This document shows, piece after piece, positions 28,039 through 52,049 of a DNA stretch of 62,560 nt (its first letter is position 1; every line of letters starts with the position of its first letter). The position numbers were made by a program, and so were the translations under genes. A model generated the notes under the pieces. It saw only the letters and a program-made list of their open reading frames with translations, was not told the DNA's origin and did not search any database. Source of the stretch: an uncultured Draconibacterium sp. (GTDB lineage Bacteria; Bacteroidota; Bacteroidia; Bacteroidales; FEN-979); contig CAYLVY010000003.1 of assembly GCA_964387205.1 (NCBI GenBank), positions 17,006 to 79,565 on the forward strand, given 5' to 3'.

Positions 28039-28039
28039 G

Positions 28040-36180: not shown

Positions 36181-36186
36181 AGAGGA

Positions 36187-36194
36187 CAAATATA
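36187..36194 (-). promoter_or_regulatory. Candidate -7 box (TATATTTG on the minus strand) immediately upstream of rpoN
   Basis: The plus strand reads CAAATATA. It lies 7 nt upstream of the ATG at 36180 and inside the longer ORF-track start. Confidence 0.25.
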
Positions 36195-36339
36195 GCAATT
36201 TATTTTACTGACAGAATGGGCAATCGTTGAAAAATGAACTCCGGAGGGTAAAAACCGGCCAGTTGTCTATTTTTCGGAAAACCAAGGTGAAAATTGGTTA
36301 ATTTCGCCTTGGTTTCATTCCCCTGACACCTTTAAAAAC

Positions 36340-37353
36340 ATGAAATCCAGGCTGACGGTCATATCTATCCATCTGCTGACATGGCTTGCGCTGTTGATGA
36401 TACCGCTTCTCTTCATCGATGCCGGACAAGCCAGATGGCGGTTCTTCACGATGAGCTGGTTCGGTCAGCTTCTGATGGCATCCTACTTTTATTACAACTA
36501 CCTTTTCCTGATCCCGCGCTTTCTTCTTAAACGTAGATTGGTGCCCTATATTCTTCTGCTGCTGGCCGGACTGATCGTCATCTGCCTGGCCAATGTCGGT
36601 TACGTCAAGTTTACCTGGGATATGATGGGATGGAAATTCCCGTTCCGATTCTGGAAACATCTCTTTTTCCCCTTGTATCCCTCCTTTCTGGCCTGGGGGA
36701 TCAGCACCGCCATCAGGATCACCAACGAATGGTTCCGCAACGAACGCAGGAAAAAAGAACTTGAAGCCGAAAACCTTCAGTCGGAACTGGCCTTTCTGAA
36801 ATCCCAGATCAACCCGCACTTTCTTTTCAATACCCTGAACAACATATGTTCGCTTGCCAGAAAAAAATCGGATGAAACGGAAAACGCCATCATAACCCTG
36901 TCCGGAATCATGCGTTATATGCTTGAATATTCAGGAGACGAAAAGGTGCCCCTTACCAAAGAGGTGGAGTACCTGCAAAGTTATATAGAGCTGCAAAGGC
37001 TCAGGGTGCCGGAAACTATGACCATTCATTTCTCCGCCGGGGGAAATACCGAAAATGTCATGCTCGAACCGATGCTGCTGATCCCCTTCGTGGAAAATGC
37101 TTTCAAACATGGAATCCGCCTGGAATATCCTTCATCGATCGATATAAACCTCCGGGCCGACCGCCATTCACTGAATTTCTCGGTCATGAACCCCGTCAGC
37201 CCATTCCCTTTTGATACTGAGGCCGGAAGTGGCATCGGACTGAAAAATGTGGCCAGAAGGCTGGAACTTCTTTATCCCGACCGGCACAGCCTCACCATCG
37301 TGAATGATCAGAACCAGTACAAAGCCACCCTTACCCTAAAATTCAAGTCATGA
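36340..37353 (+). CDS. LytS/YehU-family sensor histidine kinase
   Basis: Four or five N-terminal TM helices. His_kinase motif LKSQINPHFLFNTLNNI. HATPase-like region LIPFVENAFKHG and GSGIGLKNV. Confidence 0.88.
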   Translation: MKSRLTVISIHLLTWLALLMIPLLFIDAGQARWRFFTMSWFGQLLMASYFYYNYLFLIPRFLLKRRLVPYILLLLAGLIVICLANVGYVKFTWDMMGWKFPFRFWKHLFFPLYPSFLAWGISTAIRITNEWFRNERRKKELEAENLQSELAFLKSQINPHFLFNTLNNICSLARKKSDETENAIITLSGIMRYMLEYSGDEKVPLTKEVEYLQSYIELQRLRVPETMTIHFSAGGNTENVMLEPMLLIPFVENAFKHGIRLEYPSSIDINLRADRHSLNFSVMNPVSPFPFDTEAGSGIGLKNVARRLELLYPDRHSLTIVNDQNQYKATLTLKFKS

Positions 37354-38087
37354 TCAGATGCATGGCCATTGACGATGAACAACTCGCGCTCGATCTGATC
37401 AGCGACAATATCAGGAAAGTTCCTTTCCTGCATCTGGAAGGATTATGTCATAATGCCATCGAAGCCTTCACTACCCTGCAGCAGAAACAGGTCGATCTGA
37501 TCTTTCTCGATATCCAGATGCCCGCTATCTCCGGATTGCAGTTTTTGAAAACTCTCGTTAACCGGCCCGCCGTGATTATCACCAGCGCTTACGCCAAATA
37601 TGCACTGGACGGATTCGACCTCGACGTGATCGATTACCTCCTGAAACCATACTCTTTCGAAAGGTTTCTTAAAGCTGTCAGCAAAGTCGCTGACCACCTT
37701 GCAGTAAAAGGCCTGACGGAAACGGGCCATCCGGTCAATGCCGGGCTGCCCCAGACATACATCTTTGTGAAATCCGATTACCGCCTGGTCAGGATCAATT
37801 TCGACGATATTCTTTACATCGAAGGGCTCAAGGATTATGTGAAATTTTTTCTTCCGGACCGCACGGTGGTGACCCAGATGAGCATCAAATCCCTGGAAGA
37901 AAAGTTGCCTTCAAGGCAATTTATCAGAATTCACCGCTCCTTTATTGTGGCCTTTAATAAAATCGAATCGATACGCAAACAAAGCATAACCTTGGCTAAC
38001 AGGGAGATACCGGTTGGCGACCAATATCGTGACAATCTCTTTAACCTCATCAGTTCCGATCAATCCCCAAATCCCTATGTTTCGTAA
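37350..38087 (+). CDS. LytTR-family response regulator
   Basis: Receiver domain (AIDDE...DLIFLDIQMP) plus a C-terminal LytTR domain (ILYIEGLKDYVKF...FIRIHRSFIV). ATGA overlap with the kinase gene. Confidence 0.9.
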   Translation: MIRCMAIDDEQLALDLISDNIRKVPFLHLEGLCHNAIEAFTTLQQKQVDLIFLDIQMPAISGLQFLKTLVNRPAVIITSAYAKYALDGFDLDVIDYLLKPYSFERFLKAVSKVADHLAVKGLTETGHPVNAGLPQTYIFVKSDYRLVRINFDDILYIEGLKDYVKFFLPDRTVVTQMSIKSLEEKLPSRQFIRIHRSFIVAFNKIESIRKQSITLANREIPVGDQYRDNLFNLISSDQSPNPYVS

Positions 38088-39417
38088 ACCGTTGTTATTA
38101 AGTATTTTGCTGTTGATATCCGGAATCACGGCCGCACAGACCCGGTTGTGGACTTTCCGCCAGTGCCTCGATACGGCCCTGGTCCGAAATATCACCATCA
38201 ACCAGACCCGGTACAGCAATGAACTCGACAAAGTCCAGCTTGCCCAAACCAAATCGGCACGCATCCCAAGTTTGAATGCCAGCGCGGGAGAGGCGCTGAA
38301 CCTTGGGAAAAATGTCGATCCCACCACCAACACGTTCGTGACTGAAGCCTATCACAGCACCAACATGGGCATCGCGAGCAGCCTCACCCTGTTCAACGGG
38401 TTACAGACCACCAATACGATCCGCCAGCAACGGTTGAATGTGGAAGCAGGGGAGTATGAGACCGGGAAGGTGAAGAATGATATAACCCTTAACATCACCA
38501 CAGGGTATCTCCAGGTATTATTTGCCAAAGAGATCCTGGCTTCGGCAAAAATTCAGGAAGAGGCTACTGCGGCACAGGAGGAGAGAACAGAAAAGTGGGT
38601 CAATGCTGGTAAGGTACCCGAAAACGACCTGCTGCAGATCAGGTCGCAACTTGCCTCCGACAGGCTGGCGGTCATCAATGCCGAAAATCAGCTTGACCTG
38701 TCAAAGGTAACCCTGATGCAACTGATGGAAATACCGGTGACAGCAGGATTTGATGTGGTAACGCCGGAACTTGAACTTTTAGTGGTTGAAGTGCCGCTGT
38801 CCAACGAACAGATATTTGAAAAATCGCTGACGGTCCAGCCACAGATCACGGGCGCCATGCTTCGTTCCAGTGCCTCAGATATGGCGCTGCGGGTTTCCGA
38901 AGGTGCCAGATGGCCCAGGGTTACTTTCGGGGCCAATCTCAATACCAATTTCGCCTCCGGCAGAAAAAAAAGCGCTGTCAATCCCGAAATGTATCCGTTT
39001 TTTGAACAAATATGGGATAATATCGGACAATCCTTCACCATGGGGCTGACTATTCCGGTTCACAGCAACCGTCAGATCAAAAGCAATATCGAGCGGGCAA
39101 AGATCAACCTGGCCACAACAAGGCTCAATGAAATGAACGTGCGGAACACATTGAGGAAAAATGTGGAACAAACCTGGGCCGATGTCAGGGCAGCCCAAAA
39201 AAAATACGATGCGGTCCGGCAGCAGGTTATCGCCATGGAAGCCTCATACCGCAATGCTGAAACGAAGTACGAGGTCGGTGTTATGCATGCCACCGATTTC
39301 CTGATCCAGAAAAACAATTATGAACAGGCAAAATCGAGCCTGATCCAGGCTAAATATGACTACATTTTCAAGCAGAAGATCCTCGGATTCTATCAGGGAA
39401 CTCCCATTGAATTCTGA
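38077..39417 (+). CDS. TolC-family outer-membrane efflux protein
   Basis: Signal peptide (MFRKPLLLSILLL), duplicated OEP repeat pattern and coiled coils. The start is refined to the ATG at 38077. The ORF track begins at 38014. Confidence 0.85.
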   Translation: MFRKPLLLSILLLISGITAAQTRLWTFRQCLDTALVRNITINQTRYSNELDKVQLAQTKSARIPSLNASAGEALNLGKNVDPTTNTFVTEAYHSTNMGIASSLTLFNGLQTTNTIRQQRLNVEAGEYETGKVKNDITLNITTGYLQVLFAKEILASAKIQEEATAAQEERTEKWVNAGKVPENDLLQIRSQLASDRLAVINAENQLDLSKVTLMQLMEIPVTAGFDVVTPELELLVVEVPLSNEQIFEKSLTVQPQITGAMLRSSASDMALRVSEGARWPRVTFGANLNTNFASGRKKSAVNPEMYPFFEQIWDNIGQSFTMGLTIPVHSNRQIKSNIERAKINLATTRLNEMNVRNTLRKNVEQTWADVRAAQKKYDAVRQQVIAMEASYRNAETKYEVGVMHATDFLIQKNNYEQAKSSLIQAKYDYIFKQKILGFYQGTPIEF

Positions 39418-39448
39418 CCGGGATAAATTGAAAAACAACAACTTACAG

Positions 39449-40753
39449 ATGAAAAAAAGAACTTGGATTATCATTGCGGTGACTGTTCTTGCAGTGGTGG
39501 CAGCCGGTGTCTGGTTTCTGGCCGGCGGTAAAAAGAAGGAAAACATTGAATGGCGTACGGCAAAAATCGAAAAAGGAGACCTTCAGGTAACCGTCAGGGC
39601 CAGTGGAACGCTGCAGGCCGTCACCACCGTGCAGGTGGGCACCCAGGTCTCAGGTATCATTGAGAATATTTTTGTCGACTTCAATTCAGAAGTCAGGGCA
39701 GGACAGGTGATCGCCCTGCTCGACACCACTTTGCTGGCCCAGGCGGTGGAAGATGCCCGTGCATCTTTGCGGCGCACCGAGATACAGCTGAACCAGGCGC
39801 GCCGGGAATATGAACGCACCAAAGTCCTGTTTGAACAAAAAGTCATGGCCCAATCCGATTACGACCTCGCGCTGACCAGTTACGAAACCGCCGAAACCAA
39901 TATGATCTCGGCACGTTCAACCCTGAACCGCGCCATGATCAATCTGAAATACGCCACCATCAGGGCTCCGATCTCCGGAGTGGTCGTTTCCCGTGCCGTG
40001 GATGTAGGCCAGACAGTAGCCGCGAGTTTCAGCACCCCCACCATGTTCACCATTGCCAACGACCTGACCAAAATGCAGGTAGAAGCCAACATCGACGAGG
40101 GAGATATCGGCAAGATCAGGATGGACCAGGAGGTCACCTTCACCGTGGACGCATATACAGAAACTACCTTCACCGGGACTGTCAGGCAAATCAGGCTCCT
40201 GCCGGTCGTAACCCAGAATGTCGTCAATTATACCGTTATCATCGATGTCCCTAATCCCGATCTGAAACTTTTACCGGGTATGACCGCCAATATTACCGTG
40301 ATGGTGGATGAGGTGAAAGATATTCTGAAAGTACCTGCCACTGCACTTCGGTTCTCTCCTCCGCAAGAGTATATTGATGCCTATGAGGCAGGATTGCCCG
40401 ATTCGGTTAAGAAAATGCGGGAGATGAGGTCTGGGGGAGGCCGGTCCGGGGTCACAGGAGCAGAGGGTTCTATGGGCGCTCCGGGTGGCATGTCCGGACA
40501 GGGAGGTATGAGAAGTTCGGGGATGAAACGTACCTTTGGTACCATATGGGTGAAAAATGGCGATTCCCTGATCCCCCACCGGGTCAGGACCGGTGCTACC
40601 GATGGCCTCAACACGGAGGTGAAAGGCAGAAAAATTCAGGAAGGCGATGAAGTGGTTCTGGGAATGACGACAGTTCAGGATGGTAAAACGGGCCAGCAGC
40701 AAACCAATCCGTTTGCCCCCCCGTCATCGAGAGGCTCAAGGGGAGGAAGGTAG
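39449..40753 (+). CDS. Efflux periplasmic adaptor (HlyD/MacA-like) with a Gly/Met-rich insertion
   Basis: N-terminal TM, then GTLQAVTTVQVGTQVSGII...AGQVIALLD (lipoyl/biotinyl-like hairpin) and IRAPISGVV. The start is refined to the ATG at 39449. Confidence 0.85.
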   Translation: MKKRTWIIIAVTVLAVVAAGVWFLAGGKKKENIEWRTAKIEKGDLQVTVRASGTLQAVTTVQVGTQVSGIIENIFVDFNSEVRAGQVIALLDTTLLAQAVEDARASLRRTEIQLNQARREYERTKVLFEQKVMAQSDYDLALTSYETAETNMISARSTLNRAMINLKYATIRAPISGVVVSRAVDVGQTVAASFSTPTMFTIANDLTKMQVEANIDEGDIGKIRMDQEVTFTVDAYTETTFTGTVRQIRLLPVVTQNVVNYTVIIDVPNPDLKLLPGMTANITVMVDEVKDILKVPATALRFSPPQEYIDAYEAGLPDSVKKMREMRSGGGRSGVTGAEGSMGAPGGMSGQGGMRSSGMKRTFGTIWVKNGDSLIPHRVRTGATDGLNTEVKGRKIQEGDEVVLGMTTVQDGKTGQQQTNPFAPPSSRGSRGGR

Positions 40754-40754
40754 G

Positions 40755-41510
40755 ATGGAAAATGTTGTTATTTCGGTTAAATCCCTGGTGAAAACCTACC
40801 ATATGGGTGATGTGGAGGTCCATGCCCTCCGGGGTGTCAGCCTCGATATCGGCAAAGATGATTTCGTGGCGATCATGGGAAAAAGCGGTTCAGGGAAATC
40901 GACCTTCATGAATATATTGGGCTGCCTTGATGTTCCGACGAAGGGAACATACCATCTCGATGGCGTGGATGTTTCAGCCCTGGGAAAGGATCAACTTGCC
41001 CTTCTTCGAAACCATAAGATCGGGTTTGTTTTTCAGTCGTTTAATTTATTGTCCCGTACCTCCGCCCTGGAAAATGTGGAACTTCCGCTGATGTATAATA
41101 AAAAGATCAGTACGCGGGAGATGAAAGAGCGCGCCATGAGTGCCCTGGAAGCGGTAGGACTCGCCGGCCGGGCGCACCATTTTCCCAACCAATTGTCGGG
41201 AGGTGAGCAGCAACGTGTCGCCATCGCCCGTTCCCTGGTCAACCAGCCCGTCGTGATCCTCGCCGATGAACCCACCGGAAACCTGGATTCCCGGACTTCG
41301 CTGGAGGTGATGGGAATTTTTCAACGATTGAACAACCAAGGCATTACGGTGGTCATTGTCACACATGAACCCGACATCGCCGCCTTTACCAAACGCAACG
41401 TAACCTTTCGCGACGGGAAGATCATCCGGCTTTTCGATGTAAAACAACCCCGTAAAGCCATGGAAGAACTGTCTTTGCTGCCTGTAACCGCTGAGGAGGA
41501 AGAAGAATGA
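40755..41510 (+). CDS. ABC transporter ATP-binding protein (MacB/LolD type)
   Basis: Walker [10 protein letters not shown], signature [15 protein letters not shown] and Walker [12 protein letters not shown]. The start is refined to the ATG at 40755. Confidence 0.9.
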
Positions 41511-42727
41511 AGATAAAAAACCTGCTCATCGCCGCGCTGAGATCGCTGGCCAAAAATAAGATGAGGACCTTTCTGACCATGCTGGGAATTATTATCGGTG
41601 TCGCCTCCGTCATCGCCATGCTCGCCATCGGCCAGGGATCGCGGCAAAGCATCCAGGCGCAGATATCGACCCTTGGGACCAATGTGCTGATGATCTGGCC
41701 GCAGGCAAGCAGTTCCGGAGGTGTGAGGATGGAAGCCGGTTCATCCCAGCGTATGAGCATTGAGGATGTAAACATCATCCGTGAACGGTGCCCTTCGGTG
41801 GCGATGATCACCCCTCAGGCAAGGACCAGCGGACAGCTTGTGAACGGGAATACCAACTGGCGCACTTCAGTGTATGGGGTTTATCCCGATTATTTCGAGA
41901 TCCGCAACCTCAAACTGATCAGCGGCAACATATTTACCATGCTCGACGACCGAAGCGCCACCAAGGTATGCGTGATCGGGCTGACCGTCGTGGAAAACCT
42001 CTTTGGTCAAAATGCAGATCCGGTGGGCGCTTTCATCCGCATCAATAAAATTCCTTTCAAAGTAATCGGTATTCTGGAAAAAAAAGGACAAAATGCCTAT
42101 GGTCAGGATCAGGATGATATTGTGATCGCTCCGTTTTCCACGGTACAAAAGCGGATGATGGCCATTACCCATGTGCAGAGCATGCTGGCCTCCGCAGCTT
42201 CCGAAGCCCTGATTCCGACTGCCACTTCCGAGATCACCGATGTGCTCAAGGCCAAAAGGAACCTGGGGCCCTCCGAGGATCCAGATTTCACCATACGGAC
42301 CCAGACCGACATTGCCAATACCGCCACGGCCACCTCAAAGATCATGACGGTACTGCTGGCCACCATCGCCAGTATCTCCCTGCTGGTGGGAGGGATCGGC
42401 ATCATGAACATCATGCTGGTCTCGGTAACCGAACGTACCCGCGAAATAGGGATCCGGATGAGTGTAGGGGCCAGGGGACGCGATGTCCTGCTCCAGTTTC
42501 TGATCGAAGCACTGTTGATCAGCTTTATAGGTGGTATGATCGGCGTACTTCTCGGAGTAGTGGTTTCCAATATCATTACCAGCGTACTTACCTGGCCGGT
42601 ATCCATTACCCTCCCTTCTATCCTGATGTCGTTCCTGTTCTCCTCGGTAATCGGGGTTTTCTTCGGATGGTACCCTGCAAGAAAGGCTGCCAGGCTGAAC
42701 CCGATCGAAGCGTTACGCTACGAATAA
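41507..42727 (+). CDS. ABC transporter permease (MacB_PCD + FtsX domains)
   Basis: 406 aa. One TM, a periplasmic domain of about 220 aa, then three TMs. FtsX motif GIGIMNIMLVSVTERTREIGIRMSVGA. ATGA overlap with the ATPase gene. Confidence 0.9.
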   Translation: MKIKNLLIAALRSLAKNKMRTFLTMLGIIIGVASVIAMLAIGQGSRQSIQAQISTLGTNVLMIWPQASSSGGVRMEAGSSQRMSIEDVNIIRERCPSVAMITPQARTSGQLVNGNTNWRTSVYGVYPDYFEIRNLKLISGNIFTMLDDRSATKVCVIGLTVVENLFGQNADPVGAFIRINKIPFKVIGILEKKGQNAYGQDQDDIVIAPFSTVQKRMMAITHVQSMLASAASEALIPTATSEITDVLKAKRNLGPSEDPDFTIRTQTDIANTATATSKIMTVLLATIASISLLVGGIGIMNIMLVSVTERTREIGIRMSVGARGRDVLLQFLIEALLISFIGGMIGVLLGVVVSNIITSVLTWPVSITLPSILMSFLFSSVIGVFFGWYPARKAARLNPIEALRYE

Positions 42728-42849: not shown

Positions 42850-44832
42850 GTGGACTTTCTCTGGTTGCTCGCACCGGTAATTCTGACCTTGTTCATCCTG
42901 CTTTTATCCGACAGGTGGAGGTATTATTATACCCTGGGATTTCACCTGACCTTTGCCGCATATTCCACCTGGCTTGCCGTTCCGGTACTGACAGGTATGA
43001 TAACGGCCGCCCATCTGGTTTTCACGGGAAGTCCTGAAGGGACGCCGATATTCACACTGGACCCTCTGAGCGCTTTTTTTATCCTGCTGACCAATTTCAC
43101 CATTCTCACCGGGCTTCTTTTTGCTCGGGGGTACCTGGCCCCTTACCGCAGCCGGAAAGGCGAAACCCCCATGGCGCTCCATCTGTTCGCCTATACCTGG
43201 CTCTATCTGTCGATGCTCGCTGTGCTGACCCTCCGGGAAGGCAGTGCCTTTCTGATCGCCTGGGAGTTGATGGGGCTCTCCTCTTTCCTGCTTATCTTAT
43301 TTGAAGGAGAGGTGCGAACCACCCTGAAAACGGCCGTCAACTACCTGATCCAGATGCATATCGGCTTGGTTCTTATCCTTGTGGGATTTCTTATGGCAGA
43401 AAATACCACAGGACTTTTCGGGTTTGACGGCATTGCCCTTTACTTCACCACCAATCCCAACCTGCCCCTGTTTTTGATCCTCTTTGCCGGATTTGCTTTC
43501 AAAGCCGGTTTTATTCCTTTTCATACGTGGCTCCCCCTGGCACACCCGGCAGCCCCTTCCCACGTATCCGGGGTGATGTCGGGTGTGATGATCAAAATGG
43601 GGATCTTCGGGATCTACCGCCTGCTGATATCCCTTGAATCGCAGCAAACAGTCATCGGCATCATCCTCCTCACCATCGCTGCCGTCACCGGTCTTTACGG
43701 CATTTTACAAGCTTCTGCGCAACAGGACCTGAAAAAGATGCTGGCCTGTTCCACCATCGAAAATGTCGGTATTATCGGGATGGGCATGGGGGTCGGGACC
43801 ATCGGTCTCGGTACCGGCAATCTCCCCGTGACCATCCTTGGTTTCGGCGGCAGCCTGCTGCATACCCTTAACCACTCGTTTTTCAAATCCCTGTTATTCT
43901 ACGGTGCCGGTGCCGTTTATCATGCCACCCACACCCGCAACATGGACCTGATGGGAGGGCTGATCAAACATATGCCCCGGACCGCCACCCTGTTTCTGAC
44001 AGGATCTGCCGCCATTTGCGCCCTGCCGCCCCTCAACGGCTTTGTCTCCGAAGTGCTCATCTATTATGGCCTTTTCGCCGGCCTTCAATCCGGATCTTTT
44101 TATATCACGCTTCTGATGATGCTGGGCATCATCGCCCTCGCACTGATCGGCGGACTATCCATTTTCAGCTTTACCCGCACCTTCGGGACCGTTTTTCTGG
44201 GGTCGCCGCGAAGTGTTTATTCAGACGGGACCGTGCGTGACTACCCCGGGATGGTACTCCCCATGTCCCTCATCCTGATCCCCATATTGTTGATCGGTCT
44301 GGCCCCCGTTTGGTTCATTCCCTGGATCATGCCATATACCGGCAACCTGCTGGGCATTGATGCCGCATCGGTTGCAGTTCCCCTGGGGGAAGCCCTCACC
44401 CGCATCAGCCTGATCGGGGGAGTACTTGTATTAATGATCATCGCCATTCTGCTGCTCAGAAAAAGGGCAGGAATACAAAGAAAAACAGAAGAAGGCCCCG
44501 TTTGGGGATGCGGATACACCGCTCCGGGCCCACGACAACAGTACACCGCATCCTCCTTTGCGGCAAATATAACCGAACTCGCGCACCCCATCCTGCGCCC
44601 TTCCGATGAATTCACACCCGTGCAGGAAGAGGAGATTTTCCCCACCCCGCGCGCCTTCAAAAGAAAAACCCGGGATATTATCGACTCCCTGCTTACTGCC
44701 ATGGCCGTTTTTGGCAATAAGGCCTTGCGCAACGCAGCCCGGCTCCAGACCGGAAATATCCAGCACTATATACTCTATGCCTTCATTTTCATGCTCTTTC
44801 TTTTCACCCTTTTAGCATTGAACCTGATATGA
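42850..44832 (+). CDS. HyfB/NuoL/MrpA-like antiporter-type membrane subunit
   Basis: 660 aa. WELMGLSSFLLI, FKAGFIPFHTWLPLAHPAAPSHVSGVMSGVMIKMG and DLKKMLACSTIENVG. GTG start. Confidence 0.85.
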   Translation: MDFLWLLAPVILTLFILLLSDRWRYYYTLGFHLTFAAYSTWLAVPVLTGMITAAHLVFTGSPEGTPIFTLDPLSAFFILLTNFTILTGLLFARGYLAPYRSRKGETPMALHLFAYTWLYLSMLAVLTLREGSAFLIAWELMGLSSFLLILFEGEVRTTLKTAVNYLIQMHIGLVLILVGFLMAENTTGLFGFDGIALYFTTNPNLPLFLILFAGFAFKAGFIPFHTWLPLAHPAAPSHVSGVMSGVMIKMGIFGIYRLLISLESQQTVIGIILLTIAAVTGLYGILQASAQQDLKKMLACSTIENVGIIGMGMGVGTIGLGTGNLPVTILGFGGSLLHTLNHSFFKSLLFYGAGAVYHATHTRNMDLMGGLIKHMPRTATLFLTGSAAICALPPLNGFVSEVLIYYGLFAGLQSGSFYITLLMMLGIIALALIGGLSIFSFTRTFGTVFLGSPRSVYSDGTVRDYPGMVLPMSLILIPILLIGLAPVWFIPWIMPYTGNLLGIDAASVAVPLGEALTRISLIGGVLVLMIIAILLLRKRAGIQRKTEEGPVWGCGYTAPGPRQQYTASSFAANITELAHPILRPSDEFTPVQEEEIFPTPRAFKRKTRDIIDSLLTAMAVFGNKALRNAARLQTGNIQHYILYAFIFMLFLFTLLALNLI

Positions 44833-45818
44833 CCGGAACCTTGCTCGCCCTGATTACCGCTGTTTTTTTCCCGGGAGTGATCCTGCGGGTGAAAAGCCTG
44901 GCCAGCGGCAGGAAAGGCCCGGGAATTTTACAACCATGGAAAAATATCCTGCTGCTGCTGAGAAAAGGAAGTGTGATCAGTCCCGTCACCAGTTATGTTT
45001 TTCGCCTTGCCCCCGTCATCTGGCTATCCACCGTAGCTACGGCGCTGCTGCTGCTGCCCTTCCCGGGGATCTCATCCCCTTTTGGCTTTGAGGGCGATTT
45101 CGTCCTGATGGCTTACCTGCTCGCCCTTGGAAAATTTCTGTTTATTCTCGGCGCCCTCGATACAGGCAGTAGTTTTGAAGGCATGGGGGCAAATCGGGAA
45201 GCACTGTATTCGATGCTGGCCGAACCCGCCTTCTTCATCCTGTTCGGCACAATGGCCCTGCTGACAGGCCATACCTCCATGCAGTCGATCTTCGAATCAT
45301 TCCGTTTCGCCGGCCATAGTTCTTATATCATAGGATTCATCGCCGTTTACCTGCTGATGCAGATCGCCATGGTCGAGAACAGCCGTATGCCTGTCGATGA
45401 CCCCAAAACACACCTTGAACTGACCATGGTACACGAAGTCATGATCCTCGACCACAGTGGGTTCGACCTGGCGCTGATCCATATCGGTACGCACCTGAAA
45501 TTCGCGCTCTACGGGATGCTGATCGCCAACTTCCTGATCCCGGCCGAAGGGGTGACCATCATCCGCAACGCCGGGATGAACATCACCGGCGCCACCAGCG
45601 GTATTGTAAACCCGGGAACTACCGGCTGGATCATACTCTCTCAGATCCTGGCTTTCCTGACCATTCAGGTGATCTTCGCCTCCATGATCGGCTTTGCCGA
45701 ATCGTTCCGCGCCCGGAAAAAGATGTCCCGCAACCCGCAGTTTATCGTCACACTTGCCTCTGTTGCCCTGGTTGCTTTCGTTCTGGTTGTATTGATGACC
45801 TTTAACATGATCGGATAA
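44829..45818 (+). CDS. NuoH/HycD/HyfC-like membrane subunit
   Basis: About 8 TM helices. The loop RMPVDDPKTHLELTMVHEVMILDHSG corresponds to the RxPFDxxExExEL...EYSG loop of NuoH/HycD. ATGA overlap with the upstream gene. Confidence 0.8.
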   Translation: MTGTLLALITAVFFPGVILRVKSLASGRKGPGILQPWKNILLLLRKGSVISPVTSYVFRLAPVIWLSTVATALLLLPFPGISSPFGFEGDFVLMAYLLALGKFLFILGALDTGSSFEGMGANREALYSMLAEPAFFILFGTMALLTGHTSMQSIFESFRFAGHSSYIIGFIAVYLLMQIAMVENSRMPVDDPKTHLELTMVHEVMILDHSGFDLALIHIGTHLKFALYGMLIANFLIPAEGVTIIRNAGMNITGATSGIVNPGTTGWIILSQILAFLTIQVIFASMIGFAESFRARKKMSRNPQFIVTLASVALVAFVLVVLMTFNMIG

Positions 45819-45819
45819 T

Positions 45820-46437
45820 ATGGAAGTGCTGCTGATCATCACATTCGCCGTAACACTGATCTACCTCAGCATGACCGAGCGCTTCCCTATCTATGCCGGA
45901 TTGATCGGGTTTCAGGGAGTCCTCCTTTTTGCACTTTCATTTCTCGAACTGGATACCATTACCCCCGGAACTTTATTGTTTGTTGCATCTGAGACACTGG
46001 TTTTCAAGGTTTTAATCGTACCGTGGCTGCTGTTCCGGATCATCCGGAAAACCGGAGAAACCCGTGTCCATGAAAAAGCGCTGCCGGGATTTTATTCGCT
46101 GCTCTTTATATCCCTTGGGCTGCTGCTGAGCATCGTCATCAGTTATTCGATGAAAAGTTCCCCATCAAACATGATCTATTTCATCGTAGCCCTGTTTGCC
46201 GTCTTTACAGGTATGTTCATGATCATTTCACACCGTAAGATATTCTCCCACCTCGTCGGATTCCTCGTGATCGAAAATGCGGTACTCCTCCTGTCGATGG
46301 CCATCGGAAGCGAAATGCCCATGCTGATCAACGTAGGAATTTTGCTCGATATCTTTGTCAGTGTGCTGATCCTGGGAATATTCGTAATGAGACTGAAACA
46401 ACATGCCAGCGACCTGACCCTGCTGAAGGATGACTGA
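45820..46437 (+). CDS. HyfE-like small membrane subunit (NuoK-related)
   Basis: 205 aa with 6-7 hydrophobic helices. Its position matches hyfE in hyf-type operons. The start lies 1 nt after the preceding stop. Confidence 0.6.
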   Translation: MEVLLIITFAVTLIYLSMTERFPIYAGLIGFQGVLLFALSFLELDTITPGTLLFVASETLVFKVLIVPWLLFRIIRKTGETRVHEKALPGFYSLLFISLGLLLSIVISYSMKSSPSNMIYFIVALFAVFTGMFMIISHRKIFSHLVGFLVIENAVLLLSMAIGSEMPMLINVGILLDIFVSVLILGIFVMRLKQHASDLTLLKDD

Positions 46438-47887
46438 AGACCTGAAGACCATGAGCAACGATTTGATTCTGATCGGATTTTTCATTGTATCGGTGACATC
46501 CGCCGCCCTGGCGGGATTGATCCGATCCAAACCATGGGTCCGTGCGATTACCATTCTTTTCACCCTTTGCCATATCGCCTTTACACTTTTCGGATGGTAT
46601 CACCTGGAGGAGACATTCCTCTCCTATTTCACTTTCGACCCGCTGGGAATGTTGCTGTTGTCCATTCTTTCCATACTGACGGTCACCACCGTCTATCATG
46701 GCTTTCTTTATGTCAGGGATGATACTCCTGCCAACTATTCGGTGTATCACGCTGCGCTGATCGCCCTCGTAACAGCCATGTCGGGGGCCTATCTTGCCAA
46801 TGGGATGACTACCGTGTGGATATTTGTGGAAGCAACCACCCTGGCCGTCGCCGCCCTGATCTATCACGACCGTACATCCTATGCCCTCGAAGCAACCTGG
46901 AAATATATCTTTGTCTGCTCGGTTGGCATCGCCCTGGCCTATCTGGGTATTCTCTTCCTGGGATTTACCGTGCAGGATTCCAGGCTATTGCACCTCTCGT
47001 TTACCAGCATCAGCGAAATAGCCCGGCTGGCCAACCCGCTCTACCTTAAAATCGCCTTTATATTCGTGCTCACCGGTTATAGTACCAAAATGGGACTTTT
47101 TCCCATGCATACCGTTACAGTAGATGCCCATACCGTATCGCCTCCGCCCATCAGTGCTTTTATTTCCACTACCCTGATGAATGTCGGCTTCCTGGCCATT
47201 TTCCGTATCTATTCCCTGTTCTCGGCCACCTCCGCCCTCCCTTTCATGAACAACGTATTGCTGATCTCCGGCTCCCTCTCCCTGCTGGTTGCCACAGGCT
47301 ACATGCTTAAAGCCAGACACAATAAACGGATGCTTGCTTACTCCAGCCTGGAAAATATGGGTATAGTGGCCATCGCCCTCGGGGTGGGAGGAATCGGATA
47401 TTATGCCGCCATCCTCCACATTATCCTGCACTCATTTACCAAAGCGGGCCTCTTTTACCAGATCGGACAATCCTACAAAGTGATGGGGTCCTACCAACTT
47501 GAAAAATCGGGACATTACATGGCACTCTATCCGGCCGGCGCCATCGCAATGCTGTTCGGTTTTGTCTGCATCACGGCAATTCCCCCTTCCGGAATGTTCA
47601 TCTCCGAACTGCTTCTCTTCAAAGCCCTGGCCGGCGCAGGGAAATGGTGGCTCCTGGCCTTTATATTGCTGCTGCTGACCTTTGTGATCTATGCCCTCAT
47701 CACCCGTGCATTGCATATCCTCTTTTCCGCTCCGCGTGAAAAACCACTCCACGAACCACAGAGTGTCAACCCGTGGCAAACGGTTACCCAATACCTTCTT
47801 TTCGGAATGGTGGCCGCCATCTGCTTCTTTCAGCCTCCTGCGCTTCACCGCCTCATCGAATCAGTCATCCAAACCCTGGTACCATGA
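46430..47887 (+). CDS. HyfF/NuoN/MrpD-like antiporter-type membrane subunit
   Basis: 485 aa. KMGLFPMHTVTVDAHTVSPPPISAFISTTLMNVGFLAIFR and MLAYSSLENMG are proton-pumping-subunit motifs. 8-nt overlap with the upstream gene. Confidence 0.85.
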   Translation: MTEDLKTMSNDLILIGFFIVSVTSAALAGLIRSKPWVRAITILFTLCHIAFTLFGWYHLEETFLSYFTFDPLGMLLLSILSILTVTTVYHGFLYVRDDTPANYSVYHAALIALVTAMSGAYLANGMTTVWIFVEATTLAVAALIYHDRTSYALEATWKYIFVCSVGIALAYLGILFLGFTVQDSRLLHLSFTSISEIARLANPLYLKIAFIFVLTGYSTKMGLFPMHTVTVDAHTVSPPPISAFISTTLMNVGFLAIFRIYSLFSATSALPFMNNVLLISGSLSLLVATGYMLKARHNKRMLAYSSLENMGIVAIALGVGGIGYYAAILHIILHSFTKAGLFYQIGQSYKVMGSYQLEKSGHYMALYPAGAIAMLFGFVCITAIPPSGMFISELLLFKALAGAGKWWLLAFILLLLTFVIYALITRALHILFSAPREKPLHEPQSVNPWQTVTQYLLFGMVAAICFFQPPALHRLIESVIQTLVP

Positions 47888-49407
47888 CAGAAGCGGCACA
47901 CTACACAGAAATTCTGACCAATCCCGGTACTGTACCGCTGGCAGATATTCCCGTCCTCCCCTATGACGATTTCTGCGACTTCGCCGATCTGCTCATGCGG
48001 GAAGAGGGTACCCATTGCCTGACATACTTCGTTTTACATGAACCGGGCCATTTCCGCTTTATTTGCTGTATGGCGGCAGATGAAAATCATGCCGTGGTGC
48101 TCTTCTCCCACCTTCAGCCCGATGACCCGATCCCCGTACTGCCCTCCCTCACAGCCCGTCATTGCCAGTTTCACGGATTCGAAAGGGAGATCCATGAAAA
48201 ATTCGGGATTGGTTTTACCGGCCATCCATGGCTCAAACCAATCCGGTGGCCTTTCGACCGTGCCGGTATCATCCCTGACATGAACAATTATCCTTTCTGG
48301 AAATGCACGGGTGAAGAGCTGCACGAAGTCGGTGTGGGTCCTGTTCATGCCGGGATCATTGAACCGGGCCACTTCAGGTTTACCTGTTCCGGAGAACTGG
48401 TCCACCACCTCGAGATACACCTTGGGTACCAGCACCGCGGGGTGGAATCCCTCTTCAGCAGGTTTCCGAAAGTGATCCAACAAGCAGTTCTTTCGGAAAG
48501 TATTGCCGGTGATACCGCCATTGGTCATGCCCTTGCCTATGCCGGTATCGCCGAAGCCCTTGGGAAGATCAGGGTACCGGATGAACTGCAGTTGCAAAGG
48601 GCTGTTGCACTCGAACTGGAACGGATCGCCATTCATATCGGAGACACCGCCGCCCTATGCAATGATGTCGCCTACCAGTTGGGACAAGTGGTGTGTGAAG
48701 CGCTCCGCACCATCGTCATTAACACCACTCAGTTATGGTGCGGGAACCGGTTCGGTAAAGGAATGGTACGACCGGGAGGAAGCCATTATCCGCTGACCGG
48801 TTCCCTTGCCAGTGCCATACTGGAAAACCTGGAGGATGTCATCTCTCGGTATGAACAGATGACCGAACGGATATTTTCCCTTCCGAGTGTGCTGGGACGG
48901 TTTGAAGGAACCGGAAAAATTACCACGATGCAGGCCTCCCTGGCCGGCGCTGTGGGTATGGCTGCACGCAGTGCGGGCATGTACCGGGATATCCGCTGGT
49001 CGCATCCTTACGGTGCTTACCGTCAGTTTTCTTCGGAACCGGTGATTTTGCCCGGAGGGGATGTCCACGCGCGGGCTCTCCTGCGACAATTGGAAGCCGG
49101 TAACTCTTCCCGGCTGATCAAAACCATGCTGGGCTCACGAAATCCAAACGAAACCATCCCGGAACCCTGTTCCGGTATCTCTTTGCAACCTTCTACGCTG
49201 GCCATTTCCATGACGGAAGGATGGCGGGGAGAGATCTGTCACGCTGCTGTTACGGATGAAGCGGGACGGCTGAAACTATACAAGATAAAGGATCCGTCGT
49301 TCCACAACTGGCTGGCCCTGGCACTGGCCGTACGCCATCAGGAAATCTCTGATTTCCCGTTGTGCAATAAAAGTTTCAACCTCAGTTATTGCGGAAACGA
49401 CTTATGA
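47884..49407 (+). CDS. NuoC-NuoD fusion / HycE-HyfG-like large subunit lacking the NiFe cysteines
   Basis: NuoC-like N-domain (FHGFEREIHEKFGIGFTGHPWLKP). NuoD/large-subunit core (GPVHAGIIEPGHFRF...LGYQHRGVE). At the RxCGxCxxxH site it reads ESIAGDTAIGH; at the DPCxxCxxR site it reads SFNLSYCGNDL. The start is refined to the ATG at 47884 (ATGA overlap). Confidence 0.85.
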   Translation: MTEAAHYTEILTNPGTVPLADIPVLPYDDFCDFADLLMREEGTHCLTYFVLHEPGHFRFICCMAADENHAVVLFSHLQPDDPIPVLPSLTARHCQFHGFEREIHEKFGIGFTGHPWLKPIRWPFDRAGIIPDMNNYPFWKCTGEELHEVGVGPVHAGIIEPGHFRFTCSGELVHHLEIHLGYQHRGVESLFSRFPKVIQQAVLSESIAGDTAIGHALAYAGIAEALGKIRVPDELQLQRAVALELERIAIHIGDTAALCNDVAYQLGQVVCEALRTIVINTTQLWCGNRFGKGMVRPGGSHYPLTGSLASAILENLEDVISRYEQMTERIFSLPSVLGRFEGTGKITTMQASLAGAVGMAARSAGMYRDIRWSHPYGAYRQFSSEPVILPGGDVHARALLRQLEAGNSSRLIKTMLGSRNPNETIPEPCSGISLQPSTLAISMTEGWRGEICHAAVTDEAGRLKLYKIKDPSFHNWLALALAVRHQEISDFPLCNKSFNLSYCGNDL

Positions 49408-50171
49408 TGAAAGAATTTTCCATATGGCGACGGCACGGGAAACAATTCGTCCCTGATTTGCGCAATGCTGTCCTTCCCGATATTTTCCGCGGTCGTCCCG
49501 TAATCGCAGCCGACATTTCAGGGGAGGAGGCAAAAGCTGCAGCAGAATGCTGCCCGGTGGACGCTATCCGCACAAATCCATGCACCCTCGACCTGGGCCG
49601 GTGTGTTTTTTGCAGGGAATGTACCTTTCTCAGTGGCGAAAAAATAAAATTCACGCGCGATTTCCGGATGGCCACCAATAACCGCAACGATCTGATCATC
49701 AGACAGGGAGAAGACAAACCGATACGGATCGACGATGCGAAGGTAAGAAAAGAGGTCGGAACACTCTTTCGTCACGCACTCAAATTAAGACAGGTTTCAG
49801 CCGGCGGCGACAATTCGGCCGAGATGGAGCTCAATGCAGCCGGCAATGTCAATTTCGACATGGGAAGATATGGAATCGAATTTGTAGCCTCCCCCCGCCA
49901 TGCCGATGGTGTGGTGATCACCGGGCCTGTCTCCGCCAACATGTCAGAAGCGCTTGAAATCTGCTACCATTCCATTCCCATGCCCCGGATCATCATTCTT
50001 GCCGGTAGTGATGCCATCGGAGGAGGCCTTTTCCAGGAAAGCCCCGCCATAAACCGGCAATTTTTATCGCAATATCCTGTAGATCTTTTTGTTCCCGGAA
50101 ATCCTCCTCACCCTCTCACTTTCATAAACGGGATACTGGACCTCACACGCGGATCACTTTTTCCCAAGTAA
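49404..50171 (+). CDS. NuoB/HycG-HyfI-like small subunit lacking all four [4Fe-4S] cysteines, fused to an N-terminal ferredoxin-like remnant
   Basis: FVASPRHADGVVITGPV is conserved. Against E. coli HycG recalled from memory, CGGCNGCE reads AGGDNSAE, GACG reads GSDA and PGCPP reads PGNPP. The N-terminal part carries ECCPVDAI and CVFCREC. The start is refined to the ATG at 49404, overlapping the upstream stop. Confidence 0.85.
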   Translation: MMKEFSIWRRHGKQFVPDLRNAVLPDIFRGRPVIAADISGEEAKAAAECCPVDAIRTNPCTLDLGRCVFCRECTFLSGEKIKFTRDFRMATNNRNDLIIRQGEDKPIRIDDAKVRKEVGTLFRHALKLRQVSAGGDNSAEMELNAAGNVNFDMGRYGIEFVASPRHADGVVITGPVSANMSEALEICYHSIPMPRIIILAGSDAIGGGLFQESPAINRQFLSQYPVDLFVPGNPPHPLTFINGILDLTRGSLFPK

Positions 50172-52049
50172 AAGATAATGCCTCCAGTCGAACACCAGGC
50201 GAAATCCCCCGTACCAGATGCTTTTCACCGGCGGGAAAGGATCCCCTTCGTCCAGAATAACTTTTCGTTTACCCGGGATATCCAACCCTGCGTGCAACTG
50301 CAGTTTCATGTTGGCCCCCTGCCTGGCACCATAAATGCGTAAAAAACGGTATTCGACAACTGGAAACTCCAATTGCGTCGAATACATGGTGATCAGGGTT
50401 TGTTCATCCTGCACCCCTTTCTTTCCCAGGATCATATGATCAGGGCCCTCGCCGGTGCCATACATGCAAACTCCGACCTCGCGGCCAAGGATAAACTGAA
50501 ACCTCCCGATGGGTGTGGTAATGCCCGACTGCCATGGAAGTAACCCCCCGTTCCCGGCGGTAACGATCATTTTATTGAGGGTGGCAGGAGATGACAACAG
50601 CAGGACAGGGGCGGCCACGAGCAGATCGCCGGGAAGAAGGAAGAAAGGCAGTCTTAACCTCATATACCAGGCATCACGGCCGGGAATGGCAGTCATATAG
50701 GACCCAAACTGCTTCAGCTCCGGATCATCTTCGATGGAGATCGAACTGGAACTTTCAAGCCTCCAGCCCAGGTCCAGAAAGGCCAGTCCATCACCTGATT
50801 CGTTGACCACTCCGTCCATTCCAAGCCCGACACGCAGCGCCATTTCCAGACCCGGGATCACTCCGGTTGATCTTTGCCTTGTCCCGAAACCGCCGTCATG
50901 AAAATGAACATGCAAAGCCGGGGCGATGCCGATAAAGGGACCCAGTTCGGCATTGATGCGCGGAAGGGCACCCAGTCCGGTAGCCAGCCCCGGAGCAGGA
51001 GTGCCTGCAAGCACCTGGTTGCATCGGTAATCGATGGCCGGACTGACGAGGCGATAGATATGAACCTTGGCAAGACTGACATTAAGGGTATCCGGCATCA
51101 TAACGTCTACATCCTCCACGACATCTTCCTTCAGGTCATTTCCGGCAGCGGCGTCCAGCACCTGGGTTAGGCTGATCAGCACCGCATCAGCGGCTTCATC
51201 AATATCCTGAGGCCGGATATAGGCATCGCCGGTGAGGATGATCTTCCGGCCATTCCAGGTCGTCACCTGCAGGCCGGCTTCATTGTAATAATCGTGAGTC
51301 CCCTTGCGCTGGGAAGCGTCACCCCATATTCCGGCCACATGACCGGCGGCAAAATTATCCTCCAGGAAATGAAGGGCAAAAGCCTCATCGGCCAGCATGC
51401 TCAGGGCGATACTGCTTCGTTGCTCCGGGGTCAGACCGGGAGAAGCCAGGCGCTTTGCTTTGATCAACGCGCTGTTATGGAACCAGGTATAAATACCTAC
51501 GATGTTCAGGGGGGCGCCGGGTTTGCAACAGGAATCAAAGTAGGCAGCGGCACCAATATCTACATTGGGTAATGCCATCAGAAAATGGCCGAAATTATTG
51601 CCGGCCCGGGCAATATAATCGGGATCGGCACGCAGCAGCCGGATATCGGAATCCCTCAGACGATTGATCCGCTCACTCTCATTGCGGGCAGTGGCGATGC
51701 CCTCGCCAAGCTGGGCGCCGATCGAGGCCACTTTCATGATCCATTCCGAATGGAGAATGATCCGGAGCATGTCGTCGGGTGATGCCGAATGGTCACCGCC
51801 AATAGCCGGCCAGGTGACAAAATCAAGTTGTTCCGGATGTAATCCCTGTTGGTCTTCCATCACTCCGGGAAACAATCTGGCCTCATGGCCCTTTCGCGCT
51901 GCAGTCCATAGTGCATCCAGCAGCGCTCTGTGTTGCGGGTCAAGCCTTTCGACAGCAGTCCGGGTGATATCCCGGTGCTCGGGAAATACCCATGCATATC
52001 CATTCCAGCCGGCCAGCAGGAACGTCAGGATAAATAGAAACTTTTTCAT
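50154..52049 (-). CDS. Secreted 631-aa protein of unknown function, possibly with a zinc-dependent PLC / S1-P1-like N-terminal domain
   Basis: Signal peptide (cleavage near GYA-W). The N-terminal W-x5-H (WVFPEHRD), GGDHS, HFLEDNFAAGH and THDYYNE motifs loosely resemble PLC/P1-nuclease metal ligands. The C-terminal half of about 300 aa is beta-rich. The 3' end overlaps the Ehr operon end by 18 nt. Confidence 0.5.
   Translation of the reverse strand: MKKFLFILTFLLAGWNGYAWVFPEHRDITRTAVERLDPQHRALLDALWTAARKGHEARLFPGVMEDQQGLHPEQLDFVTWPAIGGDHSASPDDMLRIILHSEWIMKVASIGAQLGEGIATARNESERINRLRDSDIRLLRADPDYIARAGNNFGHFLMALPNVDIGAAAYFDSCCKPGAPLNIVGIYTWFHNSALIKAKRLASPGLTPEQRSSIALSMLADEAFALHFLEDNFAAGHVAGIWGDASQRKGTHDYYNEAGLQVTTWNGRKIILTGDAYIRPQDIDEAADAVLISLTQVLDAAAGNDLKEDVVEDVDVMMPDTLNVSLAKVHIYRLVSPAIDYRCNQVLAGTPAPGLATGLGALPRINAELGPFIGIAPALHVHFHDGGFGTRQRSTGVIPGLEMALRVGLGMDGVVNESGDGLAFLDLGWRLESSSSISIEDDPELKQFGSYMTAIPGRDAWYMRLRLPFFLLPGDLLVAAPVLLLSSPATLNKMIVTAGNGGLLPWQSGITTPIGRFQFILGREVGVCMYGTGEGPDHMILGKKGVQDEQTLITMYSTQLEFPVVEYRFLRIYGARQGANMKLQLHAGLDIPGKRKVILDEGDPFPPVKSIWYGGFRLVFDWRHYLLLGKK

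Follow-up and report, generated by a model that had tools for sequence, protein, structure and literature searches.

The question raised by this locus is what can drive or gate ion translocation in a membrane complex that resembles hydrogenase-4 but has lost the residues with which such enzymes handle electrons. The locus lies in a stretch of 62,560 nucleotides (the window) from an uncultured Draconibacterium sp. (contig CAYLVY010000003.1, positions 17,006 to 79,565), where six consecutive open reading frames (ORFs) on the plus strand, genes A to F, occupy positions 42850-50171. Together they code for a six-subunit membrane complex of the energy-converting hydrogenase related (Ehr) class in a Bacteroidales-type bacterium. 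This complex, probably an ion-translocating machine, descends from hydrogen-producing enzymes and is kin to respiratory complex I, and it probably works without the usual electron flow. The best explanation as a whole, to which a probability of roughly 0.55 is assigned, is a cation/proton translocator that is uncoupled from redox chemistry and driven by a gradient, with a structural or regulatory role for its peripheral arm. The six genes are as follows.

42850-44832, plus strand: gene A, HyfB/HycC/NuoL-type antiporter-like subunit, 660 amino acids (aa), GTG start (PF00361, 4.5e-49)
44829-45818, plus strand: gene B, NuoH/HycD/HyfC-like subunit, 329 aa (PF00146, 4.9e-24)
45820-46437, plus strand: gene C, HyfE-like small membrane subunit, 205 aa (NF008556, 1.4e-12)
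46430-47887, plus strand: gene D, HyfF/NuoN-type antiporter-like subunit, 485 aa (PF00361, 6.7e-41)
47884-49407, plus strand: gene E, NuoC-NuoD fusion, pseudo-hydrogenase large subunit (HyfG/HycE-like), 507 aa (PF00329 and PF00346)
49404-50171, plus strand: gene F, fusion of a NuoI/HycF-like domain (residues ~20-100) and a NuoB/HycG/HyfI-like domain (~130-250), 255 aa (PF01058, 1.9e-17)

Matches to Pfam, NCBIfam and the PDB agree with an earlier note on this DNA, made from the sequence alone, which had read the operon as hyf-like in content and order (HyfB, HyfC, HyfE, HyfF, HyfG and HyfI equivalents). The junctions are likewise as described there, with ATGA start/stop overlaps between A and B (44829), D and E (47884) and E and F (49404), an 8-nt overlap between C and D (46430-46437) and a 1-nt gap between B and C, before 45820. 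Gene calls made independently on five metagenome contigs with an identical E protein yielded these six products as well. A scan for promoters and terminators gave counts near the shuffled expectation with a sigma-70 consensus that may not fit the promoters of this host.

Kinship with hydrogenases and the Ehr class

Among solved structures, the large subunit E matches HycE (7z0s_E, 1.2e-30) and MbhL (7e-26). In pairwise alignment the HycE segments ‘RVCGICGFAH’ and ‘LDPCYSC’ are paired with ‘SIAGDTAIGH’ and ‘FNLSYCG’ of E, and the four columns of the Ni-Fe cysteines are occupied by A208, T211, S501 and G504. Neither the L1 motif of group 4 [NiFe]-hydrogenases, RxCGxCxxxH, nor their L2 motif, DPCxxCxx(H/R), is present, the latter region of E reading ‘NLSYCGNDL’. 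Three segments of E frame the former active site.

48331-48381, plus strand: E residues 150-166 ‘GVGPVHAGIIEPGHFRF’, hydrogenase-type beta1-beta2 loop, most columns invariant (81/81)
48493-48528, plus strand: E residues 204-215 ‘SESIAGDTAIGH’, former L1 Ni-Fe motif with Cys columns A208 and T211
49351-49407, plus strand: E residues 490-507 ‘DFPLCNKSFNLSYCGNDL’ and the stop codon, former L2 motif with Cys columns S501 and G504

Conservation was counted over 81 large subunits (E) and 75 small subunits (F). A scan of one genome per GTDB species yielded at least 587 confirmed stretches, the best 80 of which (48-69% identity) served for the comparison of loci. Not one of the 81 large subunits retains more than one of the four Ni-Fe cysteines and E itself retains none, which bears out the earlier claims that all ligands of the NiFe site are lost and that the complex cannot be a hydrogenase. 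In the alignment the last residue of E falls at the position of the mature C-terminus of HycE; as there is no cleavable extension beyond it, maturation cleavage is impossible. Pfam scans of 30 ORFs flanking the operon in the window, seven of which have no Pfam match of any kind, found no hyp, fdh, endopeptidase or Ni-transport genes, in line with the earlier note, which had listed hyp, endopeptidase and formate dehydrogenase genes as missing.

A genuine but non-canonical hydrogenase could draw on the overall homology to HycE and MbhL and on the position of C503 and D210 near the old site. That reading, taken together with a decaying pseudo-operon, is hardly credible: the whole family lacks the Ni-Fe ligands and the proximal cluster, the end of E leaves nothing to cleave, and hyp or endopeptidase genes neither occur among the window ORFs scanned nor recur in the 80 loci. 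Decay is contradicted by the intact overlapping frames, by hundreds of conserved genome stretches and more than 8000 protein clusters, and by the near-invariance of the antiporter Glu/Lys residues, the NuoH-like loop and the old active-site pocket.

The features found are those of Ehr complexes, namely a Cys-less NuoD/group-4-like large subunit, antiporter-, NuoH- and HyfE-like partners, and NuoC-NuoD and NuoI-NuoB fusions. The same six subunits, both fusions included, have been described for Ehr of the Margulisbacteria/Firmicutes type (PMC6349859, Supplementary Note 4), which upholds the assignment made in the earlier note. Its statement that Ehr complexes have no experimentally defined function is also matched by the literature, where the function is stated as unknown (PMC10284858, PMC10432482, PMC6728331). 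In a search of representatives at 50% identity, 4419 were found at E <= 1e-3 and 551 at E <= 1e-30, and the 114 best full-length ones were read. All but four of these lack the Ni-Fe cysteines, and nearly all of the Cys-less sequences read ‘(A/S)GD(S/T)’, the form of the L1 region in the wider family, followed by ‘DFPxxNKSFNLSY(C/S/A)GxDL’. True hydrogenases (‘CGVC ... LCYSC’), one of them from Planctomycetota, first appear at ~34-36% identity, and the L2 region of the nearest reads ‘DFPLINKSFELCYSCTD(L/R)’. Because these hydrogenases also carry ‘DFPLINKSFEL’, most of the C-terminal motif is ancestral. In this search and in an approximate neighbour-joining (NJ) tree, E groups with Cys-less sequences and not with true hydrogenases or NuoD. 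The likeness to Ehr thus comprises a group-4-hydrogenase-like large subunit devoid of Ni-Fe cysteines, six shared subunit types, and the ‘(A/S)GD(S/T)’ and ‘NKSFNLSY’ signatures common to hundreds of Cys-less relatives. Ehr identity and non-hydrogenase status are regarded as close to certain.

Ehr complexes have been catalogued since 2005/2013 in Geobacter, Mycobacterium tuberculosis, Nitrospira, ammonia-oxidising archaea and candidate phyla. Examples are those of Geobacter sulfurreducens (GSU0739-45), Margulisbacteria RA1A, comammox Nitrospira and M. tuberculosis (Rv0082-87); the class was reportedly described by Coppi in 2005 and Marreiros et al. in 2013. The class, its six-subunit plan and its non-hydrogenase status are therefore already known. 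What is unusual here is the loss of the proximal cluster, not Ehr membership, and this loss is not general in Ehr.

Iron-sulphur clusters and the course of their loss

The small subunit F matches the NuoB family (1.4e-24), MbhJ (6cfw_J, 8e-24) and HycG (4e-16), with a weaker N-terminal match to NuoI (TIGR01971, 9e-06; E. coli NuoI, 4e-04). The MbhJ motifs ‘GSCNGCDIE’, ‘GACPTGG’ and ‘PGCPP’ are paired with ‘GGDNSAEME’, ‘GSDAIGG’ and ‘PGNPP’ of F. The four cysteines that hold the proximal cluster (N2 in complex I) of hydrogenases are consequently replaced by D136, A139, D203 and N233, as the earlier note had claimed for the proximal [4Fe-4S] ligands. The N-terminal ~100 residues form a degenerate 2x[4Fe-4S] ferredoxin domain of NuoI/HycF type. 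The relevant segments of F are listed below.

49503-49556, plus strand: F residues 34-51, what remains of ferredoxin motif 1, with S/A/A in place of the first three Cys and the final CP kept
49551-49622, plus strand: F residues 50-73 ‘CPVDAIRTNPCTLDLGRCVFCREC’, CP of motif 1 and CxxCxxC of motif 2, a complete four-Cys set, aligned to E. coli NuoI
49809-49820, plus strand: F residues 136-139 ‘DNSA’, first two proximal-cluster (N2) Cys columns; Asp at position 136 in 67/75; at position 139, Cys in 44/75 and Ala in 16/75
50010-50012, plus strand: F D203, third proximal-cluster Cys column, D in 66/75
50100-50102, plus strand: F N233, fourth proximal-cluster Cys column, N in 72/75

The N2 cysteines are lost in 72 of the 75 small subunits, and position 233 is Cys solely in three redox-complete relatives. 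By contrast with this loss, C50 (the ‘CP’ Cys of motif 1) and C67, C70 and C73 (the CxxCxxC of motif 2) are invariant throughout (75/75). In a ferredoxin-type fold the CP of each motif completes the cluster of the other, so that the four surviving cysteines constitute one complete [4Fe-4S] ligand set, which in the same 72/75 relatives is the sole cluster motif. The CP Cys of motif 2, found in NuoI and in the three redox-complete loci L057, L070 and L082, is also gone from F (L76); with the motif 1 cysteines lost as well, the second, distal (N6a-equivalent) site has disappeared. The kept cluster is presumably the N6b equivalent, next to N2, and the lost one N6a, following the assignment for Thermus thermophilus Nqo9. 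The earlier description of the module as redox-dead accordingly holds for its NuoB/NuoD part and fails for the NuoI-like domain, where four invariant cysteines can hold one [4Fe-4S] cluster. In the same way, a separate HyfH/HycF is indeed missing, but the HycF/NuoI-NuoB fusion in F, with its one complete four-Cys motif, had been overlooked.

In the solved structures of formate hydrogenlyase (FHL), membrane-bound hydrogenase (MBH) and complex I, the medial cluster reaches the pocket only via the proximal cluster, in hops of ~10-12 Å, and the physiological limit for electron tunnelling is ~14 Å. The lone cluster of F would lie about two spacings, roughly 20 Å, away from the old active site, with nothing to bridge the gap. 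Since ~20 Å exceeds ~14 Å, physiological electron transfer to the pocket of E, and with it H2 or quinone chemistry there, would be excluded. The quinone-site residues of complex I are likewise absent, the columns of T. thermophilus Nqo4 His38 and Tyr87 being I159 and G209 in E, both invariant in the family. It is considered very likely that the electron wire has been lost. In net charge (-2) the two carboxylates at the old N2 site would equal an oxidised [4Fe-4S](Cys)4 cluster, and they could mimic its electrostatics.

How far this loss extends was gauged against 80 diverse metagenome operons, fetched with a profile headed by an Acidimicrobiales sequence, which are arranged as F-A-B-C-D-E (20/80 loci) or as A-B-C-D-E-F. 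They include 54 complete small subunits, 50 beside Cys-less and four beside true-hydrogenase large subunits. All four proximal-cluster cysteines are kept in 52 of the 54, comprising 33 NuoB-only proteins and 19 NuoI-NuoB fusions that also have the N6b-type cysteines. Retention in 52/54, set against loss in 72/75, makes the loss specific to the Bacteroidota clade. An independent loss of proximal-cluster cysteines is seen in metagenome locus L139 (S-C-D-D; F at 1068-1607, A-E at 1610-8271, order F-A-B-C-D-E), and the event may thus be recurrent.

Within the Bacteroidota clade, L057, L070 and L082, all from metagenome-assembled genomes (MAGs), retain all 12 cysteines for three clusters beside an E that already lacks the Ni-Fe cysteines (F at ~11507-12388). 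In the approximate NJ tree this clade is monophyletic, with the fully wired metagenomic operons L128 and L131 as its sister; L057, L070 and L082 fall near its base and the window in the most derived subclade. The ligand columns form a series from CCCC to D-C-D-N in most members and D-A/T-D-N in the group of the window, and this apparent drift at position 139 after the loss is consistent with a dead site. Compared with other Ehr, this clade differs in having D/A/D/N at N2, in the loss of one NuoI-type cluster and in clade-specific cysteines of E; the A-B-C-D-E-F order of the operon also differs from the F-A-B-C-D-E of some metagenome loci. M. tuberculosis Rv0082-87 presumably has the F-first order too. 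A separate observation concerns the sister loci, for L128:1-13524 and L131:1-11180 each hold a tandem pair of different Ehr operons, with one large subunit Bacteroidota-like (‘A-D-T-S-C-G’), the other reading ‘S-D-S-S-S-G’, and both small subunits Cys-complete.

A literature search, which did not cover Coppi 2005 and Marreiros 2013, found no description of the Bacteroidota clade or of its cluster loss. Within the literature searched, it appears to be new that a whole clade has lost two of three Fe-S clusters while strictly keeping the middle one, as do the wired relatives inside the same clade and the very broad distribution in Bacteroidota appear to be.

Old pocket, ion path and driving force

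The pocket from which the wire has been cut is conserved to a high degree. The family pattern G150-V-G-P-x-H-A-G-x-I-E-P-G-H-F-R-F is near-invariant, as is the C-terminal one, D490-F-P-x-C-N-K-S-F-N-L-S-Y-C-G-x-D-L. The residues of the old active site itself, E205, G209, D210, T/S211, H215, N495-K496-S497 and L500-S501-Y502-C503, are equally near-invariant, with D210 found in 81/81. Nine cysteines of E are conserved at 81-100% in the Bacteroidota clade (C45, C61, C62, C168, C259, C286, C452, C494 and C503), with C168 at 100%, C503 at 99%, C286 at 98%, C45 and C61 at 95% and C259, C452 and C494 at 85-89%. C503 (80/81) and C494 (69/81) sit one and seven positions off the old ligands. At the clade-specific positions other Ehr clades mostly have V, A, T, I or S, and some subclades do without C452, without C494 or without C259. 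To judge from sequence conservation, the extra cysteines may make a new metal or disulfide site. The idea that they compensate for the lost cluster was rejected, as they are equally present in cluster-complete and cluster-less members.

The membrane arm is no less well preserved. A, which scores 483 bits against HyfB (NF005086; cut-off 667), matches HycC (7z0s_C, 6.7e-51) and MbhH (1e-49) and keeps the canonical charged residues E139, K218, K249 and K346 across relatives. B matches HycD (7z0s_D, 3e-23) and MbhM (8e-17), and its loop ‘ENSRxPVDDPKTHLELTM.HEVMILD.SG’, equivalent to the coupling loop of NuoH, is strongly conserved. C scores 48 bits against HyfE (NF008556; cut-off 136) and carries the conserved membrane carboxylates E58, E152 and E165. 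Its C-terminal half is weakly MrpC/NuoK-like, with a weak profile match to MbsG (6u8y_G, E=0.041); a single-sequence search of the PDB gave no match for C. D, at ~221 bits against HyfF models with a cut-off of 543, aligns to MbsH and MbhH and has conserved E134, K220 and K338, whilst the Lys column of transmembrane helix (TM) 8 is a conserved Asn, N251. The earlier view that the membrane arm is intact is supported by these Glu/Lys residues in A, C and D and by the B loop.

The operon is also conserved as a unit. Its A-B-C-D-E-F order is intact in ~75/80 related loci, a recurrence that rules out a chance arrangement, and an extra HyfB-like gene is present in 12/80. When all ORFs of the 80 loci were clustered, no recurrent partner (fdh, nuoEF, ferredoxin, hyp or carbonic anhydrase) was found besides the six genes and the extra HyfB-like gene; the six genes are a self-contained unit. 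The neighbours of L057, L070 and L082 are unrelated (CvpA, DUF5131, cold-shock protein and others) and offer no clue to an electron donor. A role in CO2 hydration (DAB- or CupA-like) was considered and rejected, there being no carbonic-anhydrase-like partner and no conservation of the Cys/His/Asp set in the wider family.

As the line of charged residues through the membrane arm is intact and conserved, and the NuoH-like loop likewise, the complex would be expected still to move ions, without a redox drive. As no exergonic reaction would be available, net ion movement would have to be powered by an existing gradient. On this proposal the complex would act as an Mrp-like secondary cation/proton translocator or as a converter between proton-motive and sodium-motive force, with the peripheral arm capping and gating the NuoH-like cavity and the lone cluster serving as a structural element or as a redox/O2 sensor. 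Such a role would suit Bacteroidota with Na+-based primary pumps. Families with aerobic members and families with anaerobic ones both occur in the clade (Chitinophagaceae, Cyclobacteriaceae, Saprospiraceae, Bacteroidales, Rikenellaceae), which argues against a strictly low-potential fermentative redox role. The secondary-translocator mechanism, drawn by analogy, is tentative and is rated at somewhat less than even odds.

A different reading is that of a redox-driven pump, in which the lone [4Fe-4S] cluster would take electrons from ferredoxin or flavodoxin and pass them to a nearby acceptor, or to a new metal or cofactor site of Cys/Asp residues in E, as in Ech, Mbh or complex I. The four cluster cysteines are invariant, the E pocket is near-invariant with extra conserved cysteines, and the three-cluster relatives have the same E motifs, all of which speak for such a pump. 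N2 is kept in other Ehr complexes, which are taken to be redox enzymes (PMC6349859), and Geobacter expresses its Ehr, in greater abundance on formate (PMC7894505). Nevertheless, the N2 and N6a sites are gone, leaving no wire to the pocket, and the quinone-binding His/Tyr columns are Ile/Gly. The extra cysteines, moreover, occur with or without the wire and hence do not compensate for it, three of them (C452, C494 and C259) being dispensable in places, and no donor or acceptor gene is linked to the operon, be it in the 80 loci or beside L057, L070 and L082. A redox-driven pump is judged unlikely, yet it is the strongest of the rival readings.

The same pocket residues (D210, T/S211, H215, K496 and C503, with C168, C286, C452 and C494) might instead bind a new metal centre or small ligand. 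The complex would then be a catalytic or ligand-gated complex-I-like machine of a type not described before, with the isolated [4Fe-4S] cluster as a sensor, and ion translocation would be driven or gated by chemistry outside the classical Fe-S wire. This possibility, read from conservation, is judged quite improbable.

Nor need the complex move ions at all. It might be a membrane sensor, regulator or scaffold, in which the Fe-S cluster reports redox state or O2, or which acts as an assembly platform, the antiporter-like subunits being kept for structural reasons. The lone cluster does resemble sensor-type clusters, the TM8 Lys of D is lost (N251), and upstream of the operon the window has rpoN and genes for a LytS-like kinase and a LytTR regulator. 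However, the other ion-path Glu/Lys residues in A, C and D are kept down to 48% identity of the large subunit, which is unexpected for a scaffold; the regulatory neighbours are common to only ~11/80 loci; and no output domain, for DNA binding or for signalling, is found fused to the proteins or linked to the operon. Such a function is very improbable.

Several points weigh against the gradient-driven translocator. A plain antiporter has no need of a ~760-aa peripheral arm, yet this arm is conserved like the membrane arm. The near-invariant pocket of E and the acquired C168, C286, C452, C494 and C503 hint at ligand or metal binding or at catalysis, and the invariance of the lone-cluster cysteines would fit a redox role equally well. 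The fully wired sister variants suggest that the ancestral job was redox-driven. The ~20 Å distance is itself drawn from homology to solved structures, and the division into N6a and N6b follows the assignment for T. thermophilus Nqo9.

Whichever reading holds, the clade amounts to a natural deletion experiment, in which the wire to the old pocket has been cut whilst pocket, coupling loop and ion path have stayed under strong selection. If ions are still moved, complex-I-type membrane machinery is usable without a redox drive; if a new site is found, new chemistry is at work. The presence of three-cluster and one-cluster relatives in one clade provides a direct experimental handle on the role of Ehr, with L057, L070 and L082 as natural ‘wired’ controls for the ‘unwired’ complex of the window. 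The old question of what Ehr complexes do becomes a tractable comparison in this way, and the mechanism set out above stands as a proposal.

Known systems, relatives and surroundings

The closest comparisons are with E. coli hydrogenase-4 (HyfABCDEFGHIJR), whose HyfB-C-E-F-G-I order is followed here, and with formate hydrogenlyase-1 (Hyc; PDB 7z0s), HycE, HycC, HycD and HycG of which are among the best PDB matches. Unlike these enzymes, the present complex has no Ni-Fe site or proximal cluster, and the operon and the window ORFs scanned include no HyfA/HycB, HyfD, separate HyfH/HycF, FdhF, HycI or Hyp; all NCBIfam scores against Hyf equivalogs are under their cut-offs (HyfB 483/667, HyfF 221/543, HyfE 48/136). 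Pyrococcus furiosus MBH (6cfw) and MBS (6u8y) share the joining of a NuoB/D/I/H-type module to an Mrp-type module, and MbhJ, MbhL, MbhH, MbhM and MbsH are among the best PDB matches of the operon proteins. MBS shows that the family is able to give up H2 chemistry. Both differ from the present complex in having three [4Fe-4S] clusters and 13-14 subunits, including MrpB/E/F/G-like ones, where this complex has one cluster and six subunits.

Complex I (NDH-1) has homologous core subunits and the same antiporter Glu/Lys pattern, and the equivalent of the N2-adjacent His of Nqo4 is kept in E (H251, in ‘LELERIAIHIGD’). In contrast to complex I, there is no N2, the quinone-site His38/Tyr87 are replaced by Ile159/Gly209, and NuoA/NuoJ genes and an N-module are lacking. 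Complex I needs at least 11 core subunits, including NuoA, NuoJ and NuoK, whereas six, sometimes seven, genes are conserved here. Mrp antiporters (PDB 6z16, 7qru, 7d3u) share the TM5 Glu and the TM7/TM8/TM12 Lys with A, D having N251 at TM8. They consist of MrpA-G, without the NuoH-, NuoB- and NuoD-like parts that are retained here, and MrpB/E/F/G genes were found neither in the operon nor in the window ORFs scanned, nor as recurrent genes in the 80 loci. Mrp is accordingly used as a working analogy, in the sense that the complex may work like one, and membership of that family is not claimed.

A search of 5.8 billion proteins with E (E <= 1e-10) returned more than 8000 matching protein clusters at 90% identity, the top 120 at 57-90% identity. 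The named top matches are almost all Bacteroidales/Bacteroidota MAGs, and are annotated as ‘NADH-quinone oxidoreductase subunit C’ or ‘Ni,Fe-hydrogenase III large subunit’. The best 80 loci carry the labels Bacteroidales, Prolixibacteraceae, Rikenellaceae, Cyclobacteriaceae, Cytophagales, Chitinophagaceae, Saprospiraceae and Flavobacteriales, besides a few MAGs that are probably mislabelled. The nearest relatives among the matches listed are Bacteroidales and Prolixibacteraceae MAGs (62-69% identity), as expected from the earlier placement of the operon in a Bacteroidota genome. Sediments, soils, lakes and bioreactors are habitats in which many of the host lineages abound. Operons of Bacteroidota type were also met in MAGs labelled Alphaproteobacteria, Bifidobacteriaceae and Deltaproteobacteria (L020, SACF01000041.1; L073, CAZMFZ010000006.1; P0010). 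The first of these, L020, is nearest in the NJ tree to the Prolixibacteraceae locus L019, on very short branches, and the three labels are probably binning or labelling errors rather than signs of horizontal transfer. A lone large-subunit gene is found at L062:902-2392 (Prevotellaceae MAG) and at L063:9989-11503 (Cytophagales MAG), and may in each case reflect a split operon, an error of assembly or an orphan copy.

On the minus strand, a 631-aa ORF (50154-52049) runs towards the operon and shares 18 nt with the 3' end of F. This ORF, which has a signal-peptide-like N-terminus and no match in Pfam, was called on four of the five contigs with identical E; it is not conserved in more distant loci. 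Directly upstream of the operon, positions 34690-42727 hold rpoN (minus strand), then genes for a LytS-like histidine kinase and a LytTR response regulator, and after them a TolC-HlyD-ABC-MacB efflux set. This block adjoins the operon in ~11 close relatives, on the upstream side in some of them and, inverted, on the downstream side in others. With ~11 loci and two orientations, MacB/HlyD/TolC and LytS/LytTR were rejected as functional partners of the complex.

Elsewhere in the window, a ~20-kb polysaccharide-synthesis cluster (35-19932) encodes a Wza-like export protein, a Wzz-like protein of tyrosine-kinase type, GDP-mannose dehydratase and epimerase, a Wzm/Wzt ABC transporter, many GT2/GT4 glycosyltransferases and an undecaprenyl-diphosphate synthase. 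A TonB-dependent receptor was recognised by Pfam among the flanking ORFs. The G+C content falls to 0.42-0.46 at 26001-30000, compared with ~0.50-0.55 elsewhere, in the region of a CHAD-domain gene (26724-27563) and of the first part of the gene for a TPR-PAS-HisKA_2 histidine kinase (28556-30937).

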